IMG/VR virus record: IMGVR_UViG_3300043172_001413
From: a virus
Strand: one strand, 5' to 3'
DNA: 17,216 nucleotides
Position numbers and translations under genes: made by a program
Notes under the pieces: generated by a model
The model's database searches: none
What the model was told of the DNA's origin: nothing
Seen by the model: only the letters and a program-made list of their open reading frames with translations
Shown here: positions 4,145 through 14,900 of the stretch, piece after piece
Position numbering within the stretch: the stretch's first letter is position 1
Layout: each line of letters begins with the position of its first letter

Positions 4145-5715
4145 GCTGCTTTTTTCTTTTTGCCGAAGTCTTTTCTCTTGGGAAGTGGTGTGTCCATGAT
4201 CTCATATAGAAGATCAAGTTTTGACTTCCGTGATAGTAAAGGTATAAGACCAGGTAATGCATAATAATCATCACCTTCAGGCTCGTAATAATCAAATGCA
4301 ATTTTAGCCAGTTTTAAACTCTGGCTGAGTTTTTTATTACCCCAATTAGTCTTCATGTATATAATGGTAATAGTAGGAGTAATGTTGTGCCTCAGTTCAT
4401 ACTTTTTAAAGGTATCAGCGAACCAAGGATCAGTATTCTCATCTTCATCAGTGATAATAACGATTTGTTCAACACAACGCCCTTTTCTCATAAGGAAATC
4501 CAAAGCTGAGCCAATGGATGTTCCGCCGTGAGCGTGCAACGGTTTGAAAGCTCTCTCCCAGGCAGACATACCAGTTTCGCCTTCTTCTGCAACAATCTCA
4601 CGCGCTGCTGTATCGAAAGCCACTACAATTAAATTAGCTTCAGTGGCTCCTGAGACGAGAGAAGAGACGCTTTTACCCACTTCGAGAGCTGTTTGCATAG
4701 ACCCACTTTTGTCGATAAAGATGGCAGTATCAACTTTTATGACACCTCTTTTCTTTATTTGGGTGTCTGCAATTTCCTCCAGAATTTTGACACTATTCTC
4801 ATCCTTGACTCTACCGGTTTTTACTGCTTGTTTTGACTTCAATGCAGAGACACTCTTTGATTTCTTTGCCTTTTCGAGTTTCTCTGTAATGAGTTTTTTG
4901 GTGTCCTCATTTTTCATCGCACCTTTTTCTTCAAGAGAAGCATAGTTGTTTATAACTTCCTGAGGAGACATGGCATTGATCAGAGCAACCAGAATTGATG
5001 GAGTAACTTTCTCAACCAATCCAACAGCGACGGTGTAAGGAATTTTGTTCTCTACAATCAGTCGTGCAACTTTTGCAGGGCTTTTCGTATCTGCTATCTG
5101 CTGAAAAACATTAAGCTTGCTGTCTTCAGGGTATTTGCTCTTGAAGAGAATCTCTTCAGCACGGTTGCTTGGTGCAATATGAAGAGTTGCATAGAGCCCT
5201 TTCAGATCATTTTTGTTTCTGATAACAATTGAATCAAAGATATCAGTTTCGGTTTCAATGTAATTTAAGAAAGCTCTGATATCATTTCTGAAAGATGTCG
5301 GTATATTCTTGAAGAGGCCTACAGTTTTTTCCTCTATAGTTATTTCATCGACTTTTCTCTTGCCTTTGAGAATTTTCTTCCCTGTTTTCCTTCTCAGCTT
5401 TATTTTCTTTCCTTTAACAAAGCCGACAACTTTCCTTTTCAGGAATGTAGGTAGATCTCTGAATAGAGCAAGACCAACTTCACGGTTTTCATGGTACGTA
5501 TCACATACAAGCGCTCCTACGAACACTTCTTTATGATCGCGTATATCTCCATTTTTGAAATACCATGCCGCCAGATGTGAGTAAAAGACTGGGTCGATTT
5601 TTTGCAGTTCCAGGTGCACATCTTTGAGTTTGTCAGTATCCCGGTGAGGGCAGCTTAAAAAGGAATTCAACATTCCGACTCTGACATCCTGTTCGTTTTC
5701 TCTAACTCTGTTCAT
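4141..5715 (-). CDS. 524-aa protein with a C-terminal von Willebrand factor A (vWA, MIDAS) domain, an alpha-helical N-terminal half and a lysine-rich basic linker; architecture resembles Ro60/Rsr (TROVE + vWA)
   Basis: MIDAS motif AIFIDKSGSMQ...(T)...VIITDEDEN; basic stretch KGKKIKLRRKTGKKILKGKRK; AAWYFKNG resembles Ro60 ADWYNEKG but the motifs are not colinear with Ro60, so TROVE is unproven; strong GGAGG SD. Confidence 0.8.
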   Translation of the reverse strand: MNRVRENEQDVRVGMLNSFLSCPHRDTDKLKDVHLELQKIDPVFYSHLAAWYFKNGDIRDHKEVFVGALVCDTYHENREVGLALFRDLPTFLKRKVVGFVKGKKIKLRRKTGKKILKGKRKVDEITIEEKTVGLFKNIPTSFRNDIRAFLNYIETETDIFDSIVIRNKNDLKGLYATLHIAPSNRAEEILFKSKYPEDSKLNVFQQIADTKSPAKVARLIVENKIPYTVAVGLVEKVTPSILVALINAMSPQEVINNYASLEEKGAMKNEDTKKLITEKLEKAKKSKSVSALKSKQAVKTGRVKDENSVKILEEIADTQIKKRGVIKVDTAIFIDKSGSMQTALEVGKSVSSLVSGATEANLIVVAFDTAAREIVAEEGETGMSAWERAFKPLHAHGGTSIGSALDFLMRKGRCVEQIVIITDEDENTDPWFADTFKKYELRHNITPTITIIYMKTNWGNKKLSQSLKLAKIAFDYYEPEGDDYYALPGLIPLLSRKSKLDLLYEIMDTPLPKRKDFGKKKKAA

Positions 5716-5747: not shown

Positions 5748-6005
5748 TCAGGTACCGAAAGTCGCATTCGGTCTTACAGTAATATCACCTGACTTGTGGA
5801 ACTCAACAATCAGTTCGTTGAATTCATCTACCGGCTTGTCGAAATGATTTGCCAGGGCTCTTTTGATCTGGTCTCCGTTCAGATCTTTTGACTGAAGCTC
5901 AGCATCGTCTTCGATACCAAGACCAGCTCTGTCATCCACTGGGATAAGATCATCAAGATCAATATCCTCAGTTCTGCCATCATAAACGATGTGTACAGCG
6001 TCCAT
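5748..6005 (-). CDS. Small acidic protein with a beta-grasp-like N-terminus (candidate ubiquitin-like modifier), first gene of the operon; ends ...ATFGT
   Basis: MDAVHIVYDGRTEDIDL resembles the first beta-hairpin of ubiquitin (MQIFVKTLTGKTITLEV); AGGAGGAG SD; lies upstream of E2-like, JAB and E1 genes as in Ubl-E2-JAB-E1 operons; single C-terminal Gly followed by Thr. Confidence 0.45.
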   Translation of the reverse strand: MDAVHIVYDGRTEDIDLDDLIPVDDRAGLGIEDDAELQSKDLNGDQIKRALANHFDKPVDEFNELIVEFHKSGDITVRPNATFGT

Positions 6006-6194: not shown

Positions 6195-6223
6195 TTGACA
6201 GAACTTCTTTTTAGTGGTATATT
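6195..6223 (+). promoter_or_regulatory. Strong sigma70-type promoter: TTGACA, 17 nt, TG-n-TATATT (extended -10)
   Basis: TTGACA 6195..6200, spacer gaacttctttttagtgg, TATATT 6218..6223 with TG at 6215..6216; drives the plus-strand RNA cluster. Confidence 0.6.
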
Positions 6224-6258
6224 ATTCTTCGTAGAGTCTCTGCGCCCAAATTTATCGG

Positions 6259-6266
6259 GCGTACAT
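6259..6266 (+). promoter_or_regulatory. GCNTACAT motif copy A (gcgTACAT), 2 nt before tRNA-Val
   Basis: One of seven copies of (G)GCNTACAT-W, each immediately 5' of an RNA gene. Confidence 0.4.
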
Positions 6267-6268
6267 TT

Positions 6269-6343
6269 GAAGATATAGCTCAGTGGTAGAGCGATCATTT
6301 TACAGATGATAAGTCCCTGGCTCGAAACCAGGTTTCTTCACCA
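6269..6343 (+). tRNA. tRNA-Val (anticodon UAC), encoded CCA
   Basis: Cloverleaf folded by eye: acceptor GAAGATA/TTTCTTC (one T.T mismatch), D-arm GCTC-AGTGGTA-GAGC, anticodon stem ATCAT/ATGAT with loop TTTACAG, 5-nt variable loop, T-arm CCTGG-CTCGAAA-CCAGG (unusual C54), discriminator A, CCA. Confidence 0.75.
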
Positions 6344-6407
6344 AATCAGCACGATTAACTTGCGCAGGACTTTCTTTGAAATTATAGCAGAAAACCTAAC
6401 GGTAGAT

Positions 6408-6415
6408 GCTTACAT
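6408..6415 (+). promoter_or_regulatory. GCNTACAT motif copy B (gctTACAT)
   Basis: Motif copy preceding structured RNA B. Confidence 0.35.
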
Positions 6416-6524
6416 AACGTGAAGTCGAAAGACTTCCAGCCCCTCCACCTGCTCACAATCGGTAAGTGAGTTAGTGGTGGGGCTGGATTATCCCGGTTCG
6501 CCGGGAAGCACCTCAAACTTTTTT
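6416..6524 (+). ncRNA. Structured ncRNA B (~110 nt): GAAA-tetraloop hairpin, 12-bp GC-rich stem enclosing an inner hairpin, UUCG-tetraloop hairpin, then T6; boundaries approximate
   Basis: GAAGTC-GAAA-GACTTC (6421..6436); CCAGCCCCtCCAC/GTGGtGGGGCTGG (6436..6448 with 6474..6486) around CTCAC-AATCGGTAA-GTGAG; TCCCGG-TTCG-CCGGGA (6491..6506); T-run 6519..6524. Confidence 0.45.
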
Positions 6525-6567
6525 CTGCTTATTATAAATCGTAAATGGGCAACATCAGACATTGAGG

Positions 6568-6575
6568 GCTTACAT
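6568..6575 (+). promoter_or_regulatory. GCNTACAT motif copy C (gctTACAT)
   Basis: Motif copy preceding structured RNA C. Confidence 0.35.
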
Positions 6576-6671
6576 TAATTTTTAGGAATTAATCGTCCCC
6601 TGTAGAGTCAGGGGGCAAACCTCGGGGAAACCCGGGGAAAGCACTTAAGACTTGGTTGCTCATTTTTTTTT
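6576..6671 (+). ncRNA. Structured ncRNA C (~95 nt) ending in a T9 run: CCCCTG-TAGAGT-CAGGGG hairpin and a 7-bp GAAA-tetraloop hairpin; probable end of the first transcription unit
   Basis: Hairpins at 6597..6614 and 6620..6637; T9 at 6663..6671 preceded by only a weak AGCA/TGCT stem; boundaries approximate. Confidence 0.4.
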
Positions 6672-6676
6672 GGTCT

Positions 6677-6704
6677 TTGAAATTTTAATGTCACAACCTA
6701 ATTT
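6677..6704 (+). promoter_or_regulatory. Candidate promoter for tRNA-like D: -35 TTGAAA, 16 nt, -10 TAATTT; predicted start at the GCGTACAT motif
   Basis: TTGAAA 6677..6682; TAATTT 6699..6704; the -10 ends exactly 8 nt before TACAT, the same geometry as units E and F. Confidence 0.35.
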
Positions 6705-6709
6705 TTAAT

Positions 6710-6717
6710 GCGTACAT
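6710..6717 (+). promoter_or_regulatory. GCNTACAT motif copy D (gcgTACAT), abutting tRNA-like D
   Basis: The last T of TACAT is position 1 of the tRNA-like gene. Confidence 0.4.
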
Positions 6718-6790
6718 TATCGATAGCTCAGTGTAGAGCGCAAGAACGCTAATCTTGATGTCGTAGGCTCGAAACCTACTCGATGAACCA
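6717..6790 (+). tRNA. tRNA-like gene (74 nt with CCA) with an atypical anticodon loop ACGCUAA (C33; nominal anticodon GCU) and a short variable loop; identity and function uncertain
   Basis: Acceptor TTATCGA/TCGATGA (one G.U), D-arm GCTC-AGTGTA-GAGC, anticodon stem CAAGA/TCTTG, variable loop ATGTC, T-arm GTAGG-CTCGAAA-CCTAC (C54 again), discriminator A + CCA; a GCU anticodon without a long variable arm is not a normal tRNA-Ser. Confidence 0.6.
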
Positions 6791-6877
6791 AACAAAGCAT
6801 TTTCAACTTTTGTGACATTTATTATAAAATTTGTTCTTTGAAAAATGGGATCTGATATTTTTAATTGGCACATTTCC

Positions 6878-6896
6878 TAACTTTGGGAGCCTACAT
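6878..6896 (+). promoter_or_regulatory. -10-like TAACTT (6878..6883) plus GCNTACAT motif copy E (gccTACAT, 6889..6896)
   Basis: Same 8-nt gap between the -10-like hexamer and TACAT as in units D and F; no -35 at optimal spacing (TTGAAA lies 34 nt upstream). Confidence 0.3.
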
Positions 6897-7007
6897 TAGT
6901 TAATTTGGAGGTTCAATTCCTCCTCCCGGCACCACAAGTGCTTGATTTTCAAGTGCTTCTGATGCCGGGATGGCCAAATTGGTAAAGGCGACTGTCTTCA
7001 GAACAGT
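6897..7007 (+). ncRNA. Circularly permuted tRNA-like module: T-arm, acceptor 3' strand, ACCA, 29-nt linker hairpin, acceptor 5' strand, D-arm, complete anticodon arm with UCA
   Basis: GGAGG-TTCAATT-CCTCC (6907..6923), TCCCGGC-A-CCA (6924..6934), linker CAAGTGCTTGATTTTCAAGTGCTTCTGAT (imperfect inverted repeat), GCCGGGA (6964..6970, perfect complement of 6924..6930), TG, GCC-AAATTGGTAAA-GGC, G, ACTGT-CTTCAGA-ACAGT (6991..7007; U33, anticodon UCA, R37). Confidence 0.5.
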
Positions 7008-7067
7008 TTTAAAAAACTTGTTAACCTGCTCTTTTAACTTGAATGTGTCAATTTAAAATATCGGTCT

Positions 7068-7095
7068 TTGAAAAAAAAGGCATTTCACCTAATCT
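7068..7095 (+). promoter_or_regulatory. Candidate promoter for RNA F: -35 TTGAAA, 16 nt, -10 TAATCT
   Basis: TTGAAA 7068..7073; TAATCT 7090..7095; 8 nt upstream of TACAT (7104), matching the unit D geometry. Confidence 0.35.
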
Positions 7096-7100
7096 TTGGA

Positions 7101-7108
7101 GCCTACAT
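7101..7108 (+). promoter_or_regulatory. GCNTACAT motif copy F (gccTACAT)
   Basis: Motif copy preceding structured RNA F. Confidence 0.35.
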
Positions 7109-7227
7109 AAAAAATTCCGGTTCGACTCCGGGTTTCCCCGCCTGACAGACTTTAATAGGTCTACCAGGCGGGGAAACTAGCCGTGTGGATGGCATCAGAT
7201 AGTGAATCTGACAAAATAAATTTTTGT
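7109..7227 (+). ncRNA. Structured ncRNA F: T-arm-like hairpin (TCCGG-TTCGACT-CCGGG) followed by a perfect 13-bp hairpin and a 6-bp hairpin; 3' boundary uncertain
   Basis: 7116..7132 T-arm-like with canonical TTCGANT loop; GTTTCCCCGCCTG (7132..7144) / CAGGCGGGGAAAC (7165..7177) perfect inverted repeat with inner AGAC/GTCT; TCAGAT-AGTGA-ATCTGA 7195..7210. Confidence 0.3.
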
Positions 7228-7258
7228 TACTGCTCTTTTAACTTTGAAATGCTCTTTT

Positions 7259-7266
7259 AAATACAT
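7259..7266 (+). promoter_or_regulatory. Degenerate motif copy G (aaaTACAT)
   Basis: TACAT conserved but the upstream GC is replaced; precedes the last structured segment. Confidence 0.25.
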
Positions 7267-7392
7267 AGGATTGGGTGGTTACTCACCGAGTAATCTTTAT
7301 TTGGTTTGCCCAGCCCTCTCCTCAGAGTTACCTAGTTGGGCAATTAGCCGTAAGCCGGGAAGATTTTTCTTTAACTTCCCGGCTTATTTTTT
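7267..7392 (+). ncRNA. Structured RNA segment G (hairpins GGTTACTC-ACC-GAGTAATC and TTGCCCA...TGGGCAA) ending in the cluster terminator
   Basis: Inverted repeats read in the sequence; may be a 3' UTR-like tail of the F transcript rather than a separate RNA. Confidence 0.3.
7352..7392 (+). terminator. Rho-independent terminator: perfect 11-bp stem AAGCCGGGAAG/CTTCCCGGCTT, 12-nt loop, then ATTTTTT
   Basis: Inverted repeat 7352..7362 / 7375..7385 followed by T6 at 7387..7392; closes the RNA cluster 13 nt before the next CDS. Confidence 0.7.
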
Positions 7393-7404
7393 GTACCATT
7401 AAAT

Positions 7405-10050
7405 ATGAAATGTCCTATCTGTGGTAATTCCTATTTCTCTGATTTCTTGAAATGCCCCGCCTATAAAATCTGTCTCATCTGTAATTTATGCTGCCAAGAA
7501 ACTTTACCGGAAAAAGTATATGAAGGACTGGAAGAAAATGATGGGAAAGGTCCCGGTACAGGCCATGAAATGTCAAATGAAGAAAAATCTATTAATACAA
7601 ATCTCGCTAATTCCCTCTATCATATGTATCTTCCCCGGACTGTCCTGGATATCGGATCCAAATATCCTATTTTTCTCCATACTTTAAAAGACCGTGCAGA
7701 AGTACTGGGAATTGACGGTATCCCTGAAATTATTAAATATGGTGAGGAACTCGGTGTCCCGGTTATTAACACTGACTTTGAATCCATAGACATTACACCA
7801 TATAAGAATAAATTTGACCTGATAACCGTCATACATACCTTTGAGCATTTTTATAATCCATTTGAGACTCTAAAAAAGATTTTGGAGTGTCTGAGTTCTC
7901 GGGGAGTTCTCTATATGCGTATCCCGAATATGGACGTATCAGGCATTGACCGGGATTTTACTAAGCATCATTTAACGATCCACCCCTTTATTTATTCCAC
8001 GCAAGCTATGTATATGTTGAGTGAAAAACTGGGTTATGAGATATTCAGGATTGATGACCAGGGAGGGTACGGGCAGAGTGATTTTTTCTTCAGGAAAAGA
8101 AAGGATAAATTCACCCTTTCAGTATGTATGATTGTGAAAAATGAAGAAAAGAATATAACTGATTGTCTTGAGAGTATTAAAGACGTGGCAGATGAATTTG
8201 TGATCGTTGATACTGGATCTACGGATAGAACGAAAGAGGTGGTCTCAAAATACACCTCTAACATCTATGATTTCAAATGGATAGATGATTTTTCTGCTGC
8301 CCGGAATTTTTCTTTGAGTAAGGCTACCGGTGATTTTGTGCTCTGGCTCGATGCAGATGATATTGTAGAGAATCCAGAAGCTATTTTACCCTTGCTGAAG
8401 GAAAGTTTTGATGCCCATGATTTCAATATTATATATGGGAATGATAATTTCAGCCAGGCACGGTTGTTCCGAAATTTCAGAAATATCCGTTTTGCCGGCC
8501 GCGTGCATGAATACCCTGTGTTGGATGGTCTGTTTTTAGAGATTCAAACGGATTTACCCACACCACAACGGGTTATTTCTCATCAGCGGGAGACAAGAGT
8601 AAATGTGTATCATAAGACAGAGAAACACAGTACTGAGGACAGGTCAGAGAGAAACTACCGCATTTTAAAAAAAGAATTGGAAGAGGATCCAGATAATTCA
8701 CGGACTCTCTTTTATCTGGGTAACGTTTTGAAAGAATTAAAAAGTTATGATGAAGCTATTGAAACATACCGGAAATATCTGAAGGTTTCAACTTGGGTTG
8801 ATGAGAAATGGATGGCTCAAAAATATATAGGCTGTATACTTCTATGGCAGGGATATTATAAAGAAGCGATAGAGGAATTTAAAGGGGCTATTGAGATAGA
8901 TAATAGATGGGCAGAATCCTATTATTATATAGGGGAATGTCTTTTTTTATTAAAAGATTACGATGGATGTATTGATTGGATGTTGAAAGCTGTGGAGAAA
9001 AAGCCCCCTTTCTCACCCCTGTGGAAAGAAACATCTGTTTATCAGGATGCACCCTATCGTTATATTTTTGCTGTCTATGATGTAAAAGGAGATTACAAGA
9101 AAGCTATTCATTATTGTAAGAGAGCCTGCGAGAAAAAACCCGGGAATGAATGGCTTGAAGGCAGGTTATTACACTTTGAAAGTCTTCTTGGGGGCGATTT
9201 ACGCGTAATAGAGTGTTTCAGGCAGGGAGCACTGGGAGACTGTTTAATGACAACTGCAGCTCTGCGAGGTCTGAAAGAGAAAGATCCTGGATGTTTTATT
9301 CGATATGTAACGCATCCTCATAGTATGCAAATTCTTGAAGGTAATAAATATATCGATGAATTGGTTTCAGAATCAAAAGAAGAACATGCGCAGAAGATTT
9401 ACTTTTCCTATCCGGACAAGGACTCTCCGTTGGAGGATGAAGGGTATCCTGATAAACCTTTGAGCAGGCATTTGATAAAAATTTTCAATGAATGTGCTGG
9501 GTTACCTGATAATAGTATGGAAATGGAGTGTACTCTTTCTGAGAAAGAGGAAAATGTGGGTCGATCATTACGCCGTCAGTATAAGAAATATTTAACATTG
9601 CATGTTAAATCTGGATGGTCCGCTTATAAAGATTGGTATAATGACCGGTGGAGACTTGTTGTTGAAAAATTATTTCAAAGAGGTTATGTGACCGTACAAA
9701 TAGGTCACAAGGAGGATTTTTTATTAAGAAATACTGTTGATTTCCGGGGTCATACGATAAAAGAAGTTTTGTCTGCTATTAAATATGCTGATGTTCACAT
9801 GGGTATTGATAGTTTCACTAATCATGTTTCTGCGACGTTTTTTGCCCCTTCAGTGATTTTATTTGGTAGTACTTCACCTATAGGGTCAGGTTATGACCAG
9901 AACATAAATATTTACAAGGACTTGCCGTGTCAGCCCTGTTATCGGGAATATAAAAGTAAAGATCCGTGTCCATGTGGGAAGAAATGTATGAGTTTGATCA
10001 CGGTTGATGAGGTTCTGAAGAGCGTTATTAAACTTCTGGAAGAAAGATGA
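7405..10050 (+). CDS. 881-aa multidomain enzyme: N-terminal Cys-rich zinc ribbon, class I SAM methyltransferase, GT2 glycosyltransferase, TPR repeats, C-terminal GT9 (heptosyltransferase-like) glycosyltransferase
   Basis: CPICG...CPAYKICLICNLCC; VLDIGSK...FDLITVIHTFEHFYNP (methyltransferase motifs); LSVCMIVKNEE...VIVDTGSTD...WLDADD (GT2 DxD); TPR-like helices in the YLGNVLKELKSYDEAIETYRKYL region; GALGDCLMTT...HMGIDSFTNHVSATFFAPSVILFGSTSP (GT9 signature). Confidence 0.85.
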   Translation: MKCPICGNSYFSDFLKCPAYKICLICNLCCQETLPEKVYEGLEENDGKGPGTGHEMSNEEKSINTNLANSLYHMYLPRTVLDIGSKYPIFLHTLKDRAEVLGIDGIPEIIKYGEELGVPVINTDFESIDITPYKNKFDLITVIHTFEHFYNPFETLKKILECLSSRGVLYMRIPNMDVSGIDRDFTKHHLTIHPFIYSTQAMYMLSEKLGYEIFRIDDQGGYGQSDFFFRKRKDKFTLSVCMIVKNEEKNITDCLESIKDVADEFVIVDTGSTDRTKEVVSKYTSNIYDFKWIDDFSAARNFSLSKATGDFVLWLDADDIVENPEAILPLLKESFDAHDFNIIYGNDNFSQARLFRNFRNIRFAGRVHEYPVLDGLFLEIQTDLPTPQRVISHQRETRVNVYHKTEKHSTEDRSERNYRILKKELEEDPDNSRTLFYLGNVLKELKSYDEAIETYRKYLKVSTWVDEKWMAQKYIGCILLWQGYYKEAIEEFKGAIEIDNRWAESYYYIGECLFLLKDYDGCIDWMLKAVEKKPPFSPLWKETSVYQDAPYRYIFAVYDVKGDYKKAIHYCKRACEKKPGNEWLEGRLLHFESLLGGDLRVIECFRQGALGDCLMTTAALRGLKEKDPGCFIRYVTHPHSMQILEGNKYIDELVSESKEEHAQKIYFSYPDKDSPLEDEGYPDKPLSRHLIKIFNECAGLPDNSMEMECTLSEKEENVGRSLRRQYKKYLTLHVKSGWSAYKDWYNDRWRLVVEKLFQRGYVTVQIGHKEDFLLRNTVDFRGHTIKEVLSAIKYADVHMGIDSFTNHVSATFFAPSVILFGSTSPIGSGYDQNINIYKDLPCQPCYREYKSKDPCPCGKKCMSLITVDEVLKSVIKLLEER

Positions 10051-11207: not shown

Positions 11208-14200
11208 ATGTCAAAGACCAAAAGAAAATGGATCTGTGGTGTTGGTGATTTACCTGATACCACTCAGAATTACAACGCTTTTCAAGCCTTACGTGCAGAA
11301 GACATTCCATACGATCCGACTCTAAGTATTAAAGATGCTATAGAATCTGGGCTGACCGGTGTTCAGGGGCCCACTGGAGCCACGGGTACTGGTATCCAGG
11401 GCGAGACAGGAGTCGCGGGTATTTATGGAGAAACGGGTGTACAGGGTCAAACTGGAATAGGAATTCAGGGAGAAACAGGTGTTGAAGGAATACAAGGTCA
11501 AACCGGAGCTTCGGGTGGTGGAGAAACAGGAATTCAGGGAGAAACAGGTGTTGAAGGAATACAAGGTCAAACCGGAGCTTCGGGTGGTGGAGAAACAGGG
11601 ATTCAGGGAGAAACAGGTGTTCAAGGAATTGCCGGACAAACCGGAGCTCTGGGGGGTGGAGACACAGGAGTCCAGGGCGAAACGGGTATCCAGGGAATTG
11701 CCGGACAAACTGGTGCGGGTATCCAGGGTCAGACGGGTGCTGGTATCCAGGGTCAAACAGGTATTCAAGGAGAGACTGGTGCTGGTACTCAGGGCGAAAC
11801 GGGTATCCAGGGAACGCAGGGTTCACAGGGCGAAACGGGTATTCAGGGCTATACAGGAGTCCAGGGAGAGACAGGAGTTCAGGGAACACAGGGAGAGACA
11901 GGAGTTCAGGGAACACAGGGCGAGACAGGAGTTCAGGGTGAGACCGGTACTGGTATCCAGGGAGAAACGGGTGTCGCTGGAGTAGCAGGAGAGACAGGAG
12001 TTCAGGGAGATCAGGGCGAGACAGGAGTAGCAGGAGTCGCAGGAGAGACGGGTGTCCAGGGAACACAGGGAGAGACAGGAGTACAGGGTCAGACGGGTGC
12101 TGGTATCCAGGGCGAGACAGGAGTTCAGGGAACACAGGGCGAGACAGGAGTTCAGGGTGAGACCGGTACTGGTATCCAGGGCGAAACGGGTGTCCAGGGA
12201 ACACAGGGCGAGACAGGAGTTCAGGGTGAGACCGGTACTGGTATTCAGGGCGAGACAGGAGTTCAGGGAGATCAGGGAGAGACAGGAGTACAGGGTGAGA
12301 TAGGTGAAACGGGTGTCCAAGGTGATATTGGTCCTCAAGGTCCAAGAGGAGACCAGGGGGAGACCGGAGTCCAGGGAATTCAAGGTATCCAAGGAACTAC
12401 AGGGGTCCAAGGTATCCAGGGTGTCACCGGGGTTCAGGGAGAAACAGGAATCCAGGGAACCCAGGGTAATCAAGGTGAAACAGGAGTTGAAGGTATACAG
12501 GGAGACACAGGTATAGCAGGTGTAGCTGGTGTCACGGGGACCCAAGGCTCACAGGGAGTAACAGGAGTTGAGGGTACACAGGGAGACACAGGTGCAGGTC
12601 TTCAAGGTGTTACGGGTATCCAAGGGATCCAAGGCCAGACAGGTGTACAGGGAGAGACCGGTATAGAGGGTGAAACTGGAATAGAGGGCTCTCAGTTTGT
12701 CGGTTTTATGTATAATGCTTTAACAAATAGTCAATCGGATACAGATCCAGGGACAGGGAAATTAAAATGGAGTACTGTTGGTCAGACAAATGCTGCTGAA
12801 TTATATGTAGATGATGAGGATAAAAACTCTATAGATTATAGTTCACTTTATATCACTTTAAAAAATAGTGATGTTATTCGTGTCCAGCGTCAGGAAAATC
12901 CCAAACAATTTCAAATTTTTAAAATAGATGCTGTTGTTGATAGAACAGGATGGTTTCGTTTTGAAGTTTCTTTTATTGTAAGTGGAGGTTCTGTTTTTAG
13001 TCTTAATGATAATCTTATTTTGATTTTTGAGATTTCTGGACCGCAGGGAGAGACAGGAGTAGCAGGAGAGACAGGAGTTCAGGGAGACACAGGTGTAGCA
13101 GGTGTAGCGGGGGAGACCGGAGTCCAGGGAGTTCAGGGTATCCAGGGTAATCAGGGCGAGACAGGAGTTCAGGGAGACACAGGAGCGGGAGTAGCCGGAG
13201 AGACAGGAGTTCAGGGAGACACAGGTATAGGTGTAGCGGGGGAGACCGGAGTCCAGGGAGTTCAGGGAGAGACAGGAGTAGCAGGAGAGACAGGAGTTCA
13301 GGGGACTCAGGGAGAGACAGGAGTACAGGGTCAGACGGGTGCTGGTATCCAGGGGGAGACCGGAGTTCAGGGAACACAAGGAGAGACTGGTTCTCAGGGT
13401 CAGACGGGTGCTGGTATCCAGGGCGAGACAGGAGTTCAGGGGACTCAGGGAGAGACTGGTTCTCAGGGTCAGACTGGTGCTGGTATCCAGGGCGAGACAG
13501 GAGTTCAGGGTACACAGGGAGAGACAGGTTCTCAGGGTCAGACTGGTGCTGGTATCCAGGGAGAGACAGGAGTTCAGGGTACACAGGGAGAGACAGGTTC
13601 TCAGGGTCAGACGGGTGCTGGTATCCAGGGAGAGACAGGAATTCAGGGTCAGACGGGTATTCAAGGAGTCACGGGAGAAACTGGAGTCGGTATCCAGGGA
13701 GAGACAGGAGTTCAGGGAACACAGGGAGAGACAGGAGTCCAGGGTCAGACTGGTGCTGGTATCCAGGGAGAAACAGGAATTCAGGGAACACAGGGAGTAA
13801 CAGGAGCTGGGATTCAAGGAGAGACAGGAGTTCAGGGAGCACAGGGCGATACAGGAGTTCAGGGAGCACAGGGCGAGACAGGAGTTCAGGGTCAGACGGG
13901 CGAGACAGGAGTTCAGGGCGAGACAGGAGTCGCGGGTGTAGCAGGAGAGACAGGAGTTGCGGGTATTCAGGGAGAGACCGGAAGTCAGGGTCAGACGGGT
14001 GTTCAGGGAGACACAGGTATAGCAGGTATAGCGGGGGAGACCGGAGTCCAGGGTAATCAGGGTATCCAGGGTAATCAGGGAGAGACAGGAGTTCAGGGTA
14101 CACAGGGAGAGACAGGTTCTCAGGGTCAGACGGGTGCTGGTATCCAGGGAGAGACAGGAATTCAGGGTCAGACGGGTATTCAAGGAGTCACGGGTATCCA

Positions 14201-14900
14201 GGGTGAGACAGGAGCGGGTGTAGCAGGAGAGACAGGAGTTCAAGGAGACACTGGTATAGGATCGTTTATTCAAATAGACCCTAATAATATAAATAGATAC
14301 GAAGTTGCAGACGGAGGTGGTGAAGAAGTATGGATTGTTTCAAGCTCAGCTACTTATTTATTAGTGCCCTGGACAAGAGCCAGTACAAGTTTAACAATTA
14401 CTCGAGCAGGACATGGCCATGTTACAGGAAATAGAATTATTGTCAGAAATTCTAATGTTGAATATCAGTCCACGCTTATAACATCATATAATGCAAATGA
14501 TTTTACAGTAACTACTGTAGATTCAGGAGCAACATCAGGCTCATCGGCGACCTATTTATTAGGTTTTTCTTTTAGTCATACCGGCATGCCTAAAACAGGT
14601 GGAACTTTAAGTGCTCCTATAGGAGATCATGCCGATGTGCAGCTTTTATCTATGAGGGTTCGTACTGGACCGAGAGCGGGTACAACTTATGACTTGGTAG
14701 TTCCGGCAAGTTCTCTTAATGGTGCAGGGGATAATACAAGTCTTGCGGATTGCTATATCCCTGATTTTAATGTTAGAACAGATTCTAATTCATTAGCTGC
14801 CATAGCAGCTACTATAGCCACAAATATCGGCGGTTCTTATACAACATTTAGATTTGGTAATTTAGGGTCGCTATCAAGATTTATTATACTCCAATTTTAA
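11208..14900 (+). CDS. Proline-free collagen-like (G-X-Y) fibre protein, 1230 aa: N-terminal head, collagen-like region 1 (~11340..12690), globular insert (~12691..13035), collagen-like region 2 (~13036..14265), C-terminal globular domain (~14266..14897); probable tail-fibre or surface-fibre protein
   Basis: AGGAG SD 6 nt before the ATG; hundreds of GETGVQG/GTQGETG/GAGIQG triplets with Thr/Gln at Y and no Pro; frequent G-X-G one-residue interruptions; non-repeat domains at both ends. Confidence 0.85.
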   Translation: MSKTKRKWICGVGDLPDTTQNYNAFQALRAEDIPYDPTLSIKDAIESGLTGVQGPTGATGTGIQGETGVAGIYGETGVQGQTGIGIQGETGVEGIQGQTGASGGGETGIQGETGVEGIQGQTGASGGGETGIQGETGVQGIAGQTGALGGGDTGVQGETGIQGIAGQTGAGIQGQTGAGIQGQTGIQGETGAGTQGETGIQGTQGSQGETGIQGYTGVQGETGVQGTQGETGVQGTQGETGVQGETGTGIQGETGVAGVAGETGVQGDQGETGVAGVAGETGVQGTQGETGVQGQTGAGIQGETGVQGTQGETGVQGETGTGIQGETGVQGTQGETGVQGETGTGIQGETGVQGDQGETGVQGEIGETGVQGDIGPQGPRGDQGETGVQGIQGIQGTTGVQGIQGVTGVQGETGIQGTQGNQGETGVEGIQGDTGIAGVAGVTGTQGSQGVTGVEGTQGDTGAGLQGVTGIQGIQGQTGVQGETGIEGETGIEGSQFVGFMYNALTNSQSDTDPGTGKLKWSTVGQTNAAELYVDDEDKNSIDYSSLYITLKNSDVIRVQRQENPKQFQIFKIDAVVDRTGWFRFEVSFIVSGGSVFSLNDNLILIFEISGPQGETGVAGETGVQGDTGVAGVAGETGVQGVQGIQGNQGETGVQGDTGAGVAGETGVQGDTGIGVAGETGVQGVQGETGVAGETGVQGTQGETGVQGQTGAGIQGETGVQGTQGETGSQGQTGAGIQGETGVQGTQGETGSQGQTGAGIQGETGVQGTQGETGSQGQTGAGIQGETGVQGTQGETGSQGQTGAGIQGETGIQGQTGIQGVTGETGVGIQGETGVQGTQGETGVQGQTGAGIQGETGIQGTQGVTGAGIQGETGVQGAQGDTGVQGAQGETGVQGQTGETGVQGETGVAGVAGETGVAGIQGETGSQGQTGVQGDTGIAGIAGETGVQGNQGIQGNQGETGVQGTQGETGSQGQTGAGIQGETGIQGQTGIQGVTGIQGETGAGVAGETGVQGDTGIGSFIQIDPNNINRYEVADGGGEEVWIVSSSATYLLVPWTRASTSLTITRAGHGHVTGNRIIVRNSNVEYQSTLITSYNANDFTVTTVDSGATSGSSATYLLGFSFSHTGMPKTGGTLSAPIGDHADVQLLSMRVRTGPRAGTTYDLVVPASSLNGAGDNTSLADCYIPDFNVRTDSNSLAAIAATIATNIGGSYTTFRFGNLGSLSRFIILQF
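13338..13682 (+). repeat. Five near-identical tandem copies of a 69-nt (23-aa GAGIQGETGVQGTQGETGSQGQT) unit inside fibre gene 1
   Basis: GGTGCTGGTATCCAGG recurs at 13338, 13407, 13476, 13545 and 13614 (period 69) with only synonymous or near-synonymous differences. Confidence 0.8.

Follow-up and report, generated by a model that had tools for sequence, protein, structure and literature searches.

What does a short motif, GCNTACAT, mark when it recurs directly upstream of a run of structured RNAs in a viral genome? The stretch in question is the IMG/VR record IMGVR_UViG_3300043172_001413, which is 17,216 nt long and was analyzed over its full length (hereafter the window); the RNAs form an array at positions 6234–7258. 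A preliminary description of this DNA had counted seven RNA units and offered two readings of the motif: the initiating region of a family of short promoters, with transcription starting on the GC of the motif, or a shared 5′ leader and processing determinant of RNAs contained in polycistronic transcripts. In our analysis, the motif is one half of a two-stranded module, called here the chassis, which brackets each of six units (A to F), and the array stands next to a gene for a homologue of the Ro60 protein. On linkage and architecture, which suggest docking to that protein, the array is most likely an unannotated, divergent family of Y RNAs.

The motif occurs six times in the window, always on the plus strand and each time directly 5′ of one of the units A to F (Table 1), where about 1.15 copies per window are expected; one in 200 shuffled sequences reached six copies, a figure in which the clustering within 850 nt of one strand is not yet counted. 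TACAT alone is not enriched (25 occurrences in the whole window vs. 32 expected). As had been described, the motif lies close to the 5′ ends of the tRNAs: TACAT stops 2 nt before the tRNA of unit A and overlaps the first base of the tRNA-like cargo of unit D. The seventh copy of the preliminary description, AAATACAT at 7259–7266 (+), has to be removed from the set. It abuts the trailer of unit F and has neither the bulge nor the two helices of the chassis, and its site reads TTATTACAAG in L004, the closest relative, and is thus not conserved; it is a chance look-alike outside the family.

Read as RNA, every unit runs 5′ to 3′ through the 5′ strand of a first helix (H1), C-CUAAU-N7, GC-N-UACAU, the cargo, the trailer GCUCUUUUAACUU and the 3′ strand of H1. 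Helix H1 (8–24 bp) pairs a unit-specific leader with a unit-specific trailer; its sequences are wholly different between units, yet leader complements trailer within each of them (GCAGAAAA/UUUUCUGC in unit B, GUCACAA/UUGUGAC in unit D, GCAUUUCA/UGAAAUGC in unit F). A conserved internal loop with strands of 8–10 nt follows, its 5′ strand reading YC-N-AA-Y and its 3′ strand (R)ACUU; in the bulge consensus C-N-A-A, the C is present in 95 and the A in 91 of 110 units. Beyond the loop, a short second helix (H2, 5–7 bp, for example GGAGC/GCUCU or AAUGC/GCAUU) ends in two innermost pairs formed by the G and the C of GCNTACAT with the GC that opens the trailer GCUCUUUUAACUU, and N-UACA-N is left as a conserved single-stranded linker between H2 and the cargo. 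For each of the six full units, the unconstrained minimum free energy fold recovers H1, the internal loop, and H2 leading to the cargo; UACAU is unpaired in A, D, E, and F. The folding z-scores of units A to F range from −2.8 to −7.8.

The pairings are supported by covariation. The chassis was tested on 45 units from nine arrays, in a near gap-free alignment of the unit flanks (A2). In H1 and H2 together, 88% of the cells are paired (vs. 59% in shuffles) and 245 cells are changed on both sides (vs. 77 in shuffles), the 3′ strand of H1 having been placed by duplex search, yet falling always directly after the independently conserved AACUU. Double changes are seen in 12 of 12 H1 pairs and in three of five H2 pairs, and shifting the 3′ partners by 1–3 columns makes the pairing fall to 32%–48%. 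Cognate leader/trailer duplexes have a mean energy of −13.95 kcal/mol, against −4.36 for non-cognate duplexes with other unit types (Mann–Whitney p = 2e-17); for 24 of 26 units, the cognate duplex was not equaled with any trailer from another unit type. Among about 110 candidate units from 23 loci, the G position of the motif forms a G–C pair 90 times and is swapped for A–U seven times, and the C position forms a C–G pair 95 times. With both positions paired across so many units, the motif reduces to two base pairs and a linker. We did not find covariation between the two purine positions of the internal loop. It is close to certain that the motif belongs to a structured leader/trailer module acting at the RNA level and not to a promoter. 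The second reading of the preliminary description, a shared leader in polycistronic RNAs, was the closer to this evidence but incomplete, since the motif is half of a two-stranded module; the module of each RNA is less like a plain cleavage signal than like the stem by which Y RNAs bind Ro60.

The relatives used in these comparisons were gathered through the neighboring 524-amino-acid (aa) protein discussed below. Nine arrays share the gene order of the window, with 65%–100% protein identity, and hold the 45 scaffolded units. Scaffolded units are found also beside homologues at 40%–55% identity (L014, L016–L018, L020–L022, L024, L026, L027, L029, L030, L166, and LR756511.1); the last, a published huge phage of 595 kb, is among the 23 loci with such units. 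Each array holds 5–10 units. The window itself recurs without any change within a 46-kb Logan contig, and a contig of 512 kb also carries its genes. In the 23 loci, GCNTACA(T/A/C) precedes the approximately 110 motif-seeded candidate units, and the base after UACA is U in 61, A in 32, C in 12, and G in five of them. This survey imposed UACA and a CTT/CTC/TTT trailer anchor, the conservation of which is there by construction, so that their invariance rests on the read-through of the nine complete AT-rich arrays; a trailer-first search, independent of the motif, was too noisy in GC-rich loci to gauge the invariance of UACA. Over about 150 kb of related sequence, occurrences of the full leader motif are almost exclusively within the arrays. 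The array DNA has no match among the INPHARED phages; in IMG/VR, scans for the leader/trailer pattern gave nothing or chance matches only, and a protein-based search for the locus gave nothing. A pattern scan of genome contigs returned at least 120 single matches, nearly all due to chance, with L166 real and L062 possibly so. The signature to be searched is a C-N-A-A bulge, N7, GC-N-UACA, the cargo, GCUYU, and ACUU.

The gene beside the array encodes a protein with the fold of Ro60. Its AlphaFold2 model (pLDDT 79, pTM 0.70) was compared with the Protein Data Bank (PDB) by Foldseek, and the top 11 matches are all Ro60/TROVE proteins aligned over the full length (E 3e-10 to 4e-7, TM 0.55–0.66), namely the Ro60 of Thermus phage phiLo, Rsr of Deinococcus radiodurans and Xenopus Ro60 bound to Y RNA. 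In Pfam the protein has weak matches to vWA_Ro60, and its homologues have no score with the TROVE model. Residues D335, S337, G338, and S339 of the DxSGS motif are invariant in the family, which counts more than 1,000 homologues; the few that are named are hypothetical or VWA proteins, and the contigs carrying them reach 389–595 kb. Some of these homologues come from metagenome-assembled contigs of 'Candidatus Nanoarchaeia', which are probably mis-binned phage contigs. The Ro60 proteins of solved structure share 10%–15% identity with the 524-aa homologue. On the model, this protein is a candidate partner of the chassis.

The array lies 0.5–1.5 kb from the Ro60-like gene, within the distance of 4 kb reported for Y RNAs, and it adjoins that gene in all 23 loci found with scaffolded units. 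In distant relatives, the array is directly upstream of the gene on the same strand. Between the two in the window is an open reading frame (ORF) of 85 aa, present at 84–112 aa in every close relative and without a match in Pfam, PHROGs, PADLOC, or NCBIfam. A conserved neighbor of 286 aa shows similarity to the OB-fold only. PADLOC and NCBIfam gave nothing for the Ro60-like, the 286-aa, and the 85-aa proteins.

Three classes of cargo are carried on the same chassis: tRNA or tRNA-like folds (A and D), circularly permuted tRNA-like folds (E and F), and compact folds that are not tRNAs (B and C; unit C has orthologues in L004, L051, and L055). As in permuted tRNA genes, the 3′ half stands upstream and a canonical tRNA results on re-joining in unit E and in several orthologous units; for unit E, ARAGORN calls a tRNA(tca) once the halves are re-joined. 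For unit F, a tRNA is found after rotation, with an unreliable anticodon call; ARAGORN finds a tRNA also in the orthologous cargoes of L004, L007, and L051. ARAGORN called one of the four tRNA-like units of the window and gives no call for the cargo of unit D. In relatives, the break point of the permutation is in the variable arm, in the anticodon loop (L166 unit 1), or in the D loop (L021 at 3517), and some unpermuted cargoes have an acceptor stem of 4 bp merging into the chassis (L016, L017, L021).

Anticodons differ between phages at orthologous positions. Five of 16 anticodon loops read by eye are without U33 or have 6 nt (W_D, W_F, L012_0, L013_0, and L054_0), and a survey with ARAGORN gave ten of 45 without U33, the calls on rotated sequences being uncertain. 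With such irregular loops, tRNA mimics fit better than decoding tRNAs, for at least part of the set. The loop of unit E (cargo 6897–7027), CUUCAGA, is regular, with U33 and anticodon UCA, and would read UGA if the RNA were ever matured; the orthologous loops are CGUUAAA (UUA) in L004, CGGUAAA (GUA) in L051, and CAGUAAA (GUA) in L007. Under code 11, the window's ORFs are intact. The acceptor stem of unit E is closed by a linker that contains, at 6936–6958, a direct repeat (CAAGTGCTT twice around GATTTT), which RNAfold pairs into a hairpin. In L004 (reverse strand, a relative of 80% identity), the unit orthologous to that of tRNA-Val (unit A, cargo of 53 nt) holds a rearranged remnant, in which the motif is followed at once by the T arm and next by a D-stem-like piece; the surrounding chassis is intact and is thus kept even as the cargo decays or is reshuffled.

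Unit E also recalls a two-piece transfer-messenger RNA (tmRNA), with the T arm and the acceptor 3′ strand with CCA upstream of the acceptor 5′ strand, and this order accounts for the partial matches at 6907–6971 to the Rfam models beta_tmRNA and tmRNA_permuted (27.5 and 13.6 bits vs. thresholds of 84 and 47). We reject that identity: the matches are below threshold, and unit E is without a tag reading frame and without G3:U70, the acceptor stem being GCCGGGA/UCCCGGC, and it has full D and anticodon arms.

The Y RNAs described in the literature are encoded at most 4 kb from Ro60 and have a terminal stem-bulge-stem formed from the two ends, in which the bulge's 5′ strand bears a CGAA motif (GNCGAAN0-1G). 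In those of the YrlA type, the effector module is a tRNA-like domain resembling a circularly permuted tRNA; in Mycobacterium smegmatis, the acceptor stem of YrlA has 7 bp, and the RNA is cleaved by RNase P and given CCA in vivo. Yrn1 of D. radiodurans is oriented the other way round, its stalk taking the acceptor position (PMC4201824; bioRxiv 10.1101/312249; PMC12135203). In a review, a few jumbo phages are listed with a TROVE protein and a tRNA-like partner (PMC7824862). We found no report of Y RNA arrays or of permuted tRNA genes in huge phages, in a literature search whose coverage left most subscription journals outside.

The units of the window share much with the YrlA type (RF02553; Chen et al. 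2014, PMC4201824; Wang et al. 2018, 10.1101/312249; Yrl1 and Yrl2 of phiLo, PMC12135203). They stand beside a Ro60 homologue; their ends form a stem-bulge-stem (H1, loop, and H2, as seen in the covariation and in the folds of the six units) with conserved residues on the bulge's 5′ strand. The 3′ loop ends in AACUU followed by G, where the Rfam consensus has AcUuG. The layout of that consensus is the same: a stem, an 8-nt 3′ loop ending in AcUuG, a second stem, and a UA-containing 5′ linker. The tRNA-like module, with T arm, closed acceptor stem, and D arm in the order of a circularly permuted tRNA, is present in E and F; A and D are unpermuted, and B and C are not tRNA-like. Since the acceptor stem has 7 bp, as in YrlA, cleavage by RNase P is possible. 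In relatives, the RF02553 model gives eight sub-threshold matches (21–39 bits vs. a threshold of 69, E 2e-5 to 3.5), and all eight fall on scaffolded units of L166, L024, L017, and L029.

Unlike in YrlA, the bulge of the array is C-N-A-A (mostly CUAA) and not GNCGAA, an additional invariant GC-N-UACA is present, the arrays count 5–10 units where 1–4 are reported, and many modules retain a full anticodon arm with a break point that varies between variable arm, anticodon loop, and D loop. On the other hand, units A and D, together with the units of L016, L017, and L021 with a 4-bp acceptor, are arranged as in Yrn1, with the Ro-binding stem at the acceptor position of a tRNA-like fold and a hairpin resembling an anticodon arm between the D-like and T arms. 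They differ from Yrn1 in the sequence of the binding site and in that the cargo can be a complete tRNA (51–60 bits) with a 7-bp acceptor stem and CCA. The two orientations, of Yrn1 and of YrlA, are thus both present in the array of the window.

From these comparisons, we consider it fairly probable that units A to F are small RNAs of the Y RNA type on a common chassis that docks the phage Ro60 homologue, by the following mechanism. The array would be transcribed as one RNA, from a sigma-70 promoter before unit A to the terminator at its end, and each unit would fold independently. The AU-rich spacers would be cut and trimmed back to the foot of H1, and the stem-bulge-stem with the UACA linker would then dock the Ro60 homologue encoded next door. 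In E and F, where the acceptor stem of the module has 7 bp and NCCA is encoded, RNase P may open the module, and the product would be a two-piece tRNA-like RNA kept together by the chassis. On the best reading, then, the units would work like Y RNAs and be related to them.

Several observations weigh against this assignment. The GNCGAAN0-1G motif is absent from the units of the window, which read CCUAAU/C, CCAAAU, or UCAGAC; CGAA occurs at the bulge in some relatives only, with CGAAUC in L016 and L029 where the window has CUAAU, and CCGAAU in two C-type units (L051_2 and L055_2). With the Rfam model of YrlA (RF02553), searches of the window over 17 kb (E ≤ 1) and over 1.2 kb (E ≤ 10) gave no match, and by the criteria of Rfam the units are not members of that family. 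A sequence-only search of the PDB with the Ro60-like profile was negative. The array is divergent from the Ro60-like gene in the clade of the window, whereas published YrlA genes are on the same strand as Ro60. In L021 (13–2501, about 30 genes) and L027 (656–2409, about 16 genes), the scaffolded units and the Ro60-like gene are immediately preceded, on the upstream side, by dense arrays of ordinary tRNA genes with spacers below 10 nt and no chassis; with such arrays next to the gene in distant relatives, the linkage could partly reflect a general RNA region. Finally, the tRNAs in units A and D are apparently complete, with CCA and an acceptor stem of 7 bp, which would suit a pure processing stalk equally well.

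Such a stalk, without any part for Ro60, is the main alternative and in our judgment unlikely. The platform of H1, loop, and H2 would be recognized by an endonuclease, of RNase III type or other, that frees the cargo from a polycistronic precursor; the ends of permuted cargoes would be ligated to a circle, which RNase P and a 3′ nuclease would open to a normal tRNA, as in Cyanidioschyzon merolae. Stems between leader and trailer around stable RNAs are classic substrates of RNase III. In rRNA operons and the early RNAs of phage T7, leader/trailer helices with an internal loop bracket stable RNAs within a polycistronic transcript much as in the array; in the latter, however, the loops are conserved in sequence, H1 is often just 8–13 bp long, and Ro60 is linked. 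The full tRNAs of A and D would fit a processing stalk, as would the tRNA calls obtained on rotation of E and F (including the UCA anticodon) and the breaks in variable arm, anticodon, or D loop of the relatives; a break in the anticodon or D loop makes ligation necessary for decoding, and jumbo phages often encode RtcB or Rnl ligases (PMC7824862). Nevertheless, no gene for a ligase or an endonuclease was found in the window or in the conserved neighborhood, where the 286-aa protein has just the OB-fold. Cargoes B and C are not tRNAs; where the 4-bp acceptor stem merges into the chassis (L016, L017, L021), no tRNA is releasable; the irregular anticodon loops fit poorly; and the tight linkage to Ro60 is left unexplained. 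A processing or ligation stalk is still conceivable for A and D, and for the permuted units it would be the more remarkable of the two explanations.

The likeness to permuted tRNA genes of the C. merolae type (known also in some other algae and archaea; Soma et al. 2007, as cited in 10.1101/312249) extends to the 3′ half coming first, a linker joining the acceptor ends, and a leader pairing with the trailer. It does not extend to the bulge-helix-bulge (3-nt bulges and a 4-bp helix), for which the array has loops of 8–10 nt and an H2 of 5–7 bp. We should add that, for the splicing step, we know of no splicing endonuclease in bacteria or phages.

There is an outside chance that the two views combine in a system of huge phages in which up to ten complete or permuted tRNAs, including a UGA-reading one with anticodon UCA, are mounted on a Ro60-docking stalk that is also a module for cut-and-rejoin (or two-piece) maturation. 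The release or exposure of functional and possibly code-altering tRNAs, or of decoys, would then require the action of the phage Ro60 and its partners. If this were true, Y RNAs of bacterial type would take part directly in tRNA supply, repair, or decoying during infection, and the maturation of permuted tRNAs would be seen for the first time outside eukaryotes and archaea.

A promoter before each unit (TTGAAA, 16 nt, TAAnnT), with GCNTACAT as the initiating region and the start on GC, is highly improbable. The elements that had suggested it do exist: TAATTT, TAACTT, and TAATCT stand 8 nt before TACAT in D, E, and F (TAACGG in B), in D and F, a TTGAAA is present another 16 nt upstream, and these two units fit TTGAAA-16-TAAnnT-N5-GC. 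In addition, five units of L014 have TTGACA or TTCACA 24 nt upstream of GC, and T runs often follow the 3′ strand of H1. But H1 and 3–5 nt of H2, all upstream of GC, covary with the trailer and must therefore be transcribed, which places the start upstream of H1. Nor is the spacing conserved: among 36 internal units of nine arrays, the spacer between TTGAAA and TAAnnT is 16–18 nt in eight, the range is 14–39 nt, and 11 units are without TTGAA. The hexamer resembling a −10 element coincides with the CNAA bulge and is CCUGAC, CUCUCAC, or CCCCAAC in relatives. The motif is absent before protein genes in the related sequence (about 150 kb), and a strong promoter is present only before unit A. The preliminary description had itself rejected TACAT as a −10 element, rightly so.

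We likewise give almost no weight to UACAU as a cleavage site or decoy for an endoribonuclease of the MazF/EndoA type that would set the 5′ end of the cargo. MazF of Bacillus subtilis, Staphylococcus aureus, and Clostridioides difficile cuts U^ACAU, and the six copies of the window are exactly UACAU, in the linker directly 5′ of the cargo; but the fifth base is variable in relatives, so that a site of this type would be a curiosity of the clade of the window. Besides, conservation is just as strong in the neighboring paired GC and the remaining loop motifs, the rest of the window shows no depletion of TACAT, and no toxin gene is seen nearby. Self-cleaving ribozymes (hammerhead, twister, pistol, hatchet, HDV, and hairpin) gave no Rfam matches and no core motifs by eye, and integron attC sites and transposon inverted repeats were rejected since there is no pairing among the conserved parts and no sequence conservation in the paired ones.

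The remaining parts of the locus are collected in Table 1. The promoter of unit A, the sole strong one of the array, is kept in the related arrays where that region is present, with a predicted start a few nucleotides 5′ of H1 of unit A. The spacer element TCTTTGAAA (in RNA, UCUUUGAAA) stands at the foot of the stalk regardless of the length of H1 and is conserved in spacers throughout the clade of the window; L014 has UUGACA or UUCACA in its place. It may be an endonuclease site or a lineage-specific promoter element with transcription starting before H1. A terminator hairpin equivalent to that of the window closes the arrays of L004, L007, and L051. Between the last chassis and the terminator, the region described as a unit G (7267–7351) has no chassis; it folds well (z = −4.75 with the terminator), is kept with an insertion in L004 and is absent from L007 and L051, and could be an RNA or a 3′ extension. 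The flanking genes at 7405–10050 and 11208–14900 encode a fusion of 881 aa, with methyltransferase, GT2 glycosyltransferase, TPR repeats, and a GT9-like domain, and a collagen-repeat tail-fibre protein of 1230 aa. In L024, a weak Rfam HEARO match that may be due to chance (4146–4411, 35.6 bits, E 3e-4, over the full length of the model) sits between the last scaffolded unit and the Ro60-like gene.

Table 1. Elements of the Ro60-linked RNA array and its surroundings (positions in the window)
Feature	Position	Strand	Description
Ro60/Rsr homologue, 524 aa	4141–5715	−	Helical-repeat (TROVE-like) ring and vWA domain with a DxSGS motif of the MIDAS type
85-aa ORF	5748–6005	−	Between array and Ro60-like gene
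Promoter, sigma-70-type	6195–6223	+	TTGACA-17 nt-TGgTATATT; 11 of 12 consensus matches plus TG; upstream of unit A
Unit A	6234–6373	+	H1 6234–6245/6362–6373, duplex −17.8 kcal/mol
Unit A, inner parts		+	Bulge CCAAAUUUAU 6246–6255; H2 5′ strand 6256–6260; motif GCGTACAT 6259–6266; trailer GCACGATTAACTT 6349–6361
Unit A, cargo	6269–6343	+	tRNA-Val(UAC); tRNA model, 60 bits
Unit B	6383–6532	+	H1 6383–6394/6521–6532; motif GCTTACAT 6408–6415; trailer GCACCTCAAACTT 6508–6520
Unit B, cargo	6416–6507	+	Three-hairpin non-tRNA fold, z = −6.4
Unit C	6543–6665	+	H1 6543–6554/6654–6665; bulge UCAGAC; motif GCTTACAT 6568–6575; trailer GCACTTAAGACTT 6641–6653
Unit C, cargo	6576–6640	+	Cloverleaf-like non-tRNA fold, z = −7.5
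Unit D	6685–6821	+	H1 6685–6696/6810–6821; bulge CCUAAU; H2 AAUGC/GCAUU; motif GCGTACAT 6710–6717; trailer GCATTTTCAACTT 6797–6809
Unit D, cargo	6717–6787	+	tRNA-like; Rfam tRNA model, 51 bits; anticodon loop ACGCUAA (C33); then CCA
Unit E, permuted tRNA-like	6854–7062	+	H1 about 22 bp (6854–6875/7041–7062); motif GCCTACAT 6889–6896; trailer GCTCTTTTAACTT 7028–7040; z = −7.4
Unit E, cargo, 3′ half first		+	T arm 6907–6923; acceptor 3′ strand plus ACCA 6924–6934; closing linker 6935–6963
Unit E, cargo, 5′ half		+	Acceptor 5′ strand 6964–6970; D arm 6972–6989; anticodon arm 6991–7007 (loop CUUCAGA, UCA)
Unit F, second permuted tRNA-like	7075–7258	+	H1 7075–7087/7245–7258; motif GCCTACAT 7101–7108; trailer GCTCTTTTAACTT 7232–7244; z = −7.8
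Unit F, cargo		+	T arm 7116–7132; acceptor 3′ strand 7133–7142; closing hairpin; acceptor 5′ strand 7167–7176
Unit F, cargo, rest		+	Anticodon arm 7195–7211 (loop UAGUGAA); own variable hairpin
Spacer element TCTTTGAAA (RNA UCUUUGAAA)	6373–6381, 6674–6682, 6835–6843, 7065–7073	+	5′ foot of the H1 stalk
Intrinsic terminator	7352–7392	+	Strong hairpin and T run at the array end

Conservation of Ro60 and Y RNAs extends from bacteria to humans, and their function is poorly understood in bacteria and even more so in phages. The locus reveals a large family missed by current annotation, with a Ro60 gene tied to arrays of 5–10 RNA units, and the units on the chassis are overlooked by tRNA finders. 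With tRNAs and modules permuted at different positions on one chassis, it becomes testable what Ro60 recognizes, whether Y RNAs may deliver, hide, or mature tRNAs in the course of infection, and whether permuted tRNA-like RNAs can become working tRNAs in the bacterial world.

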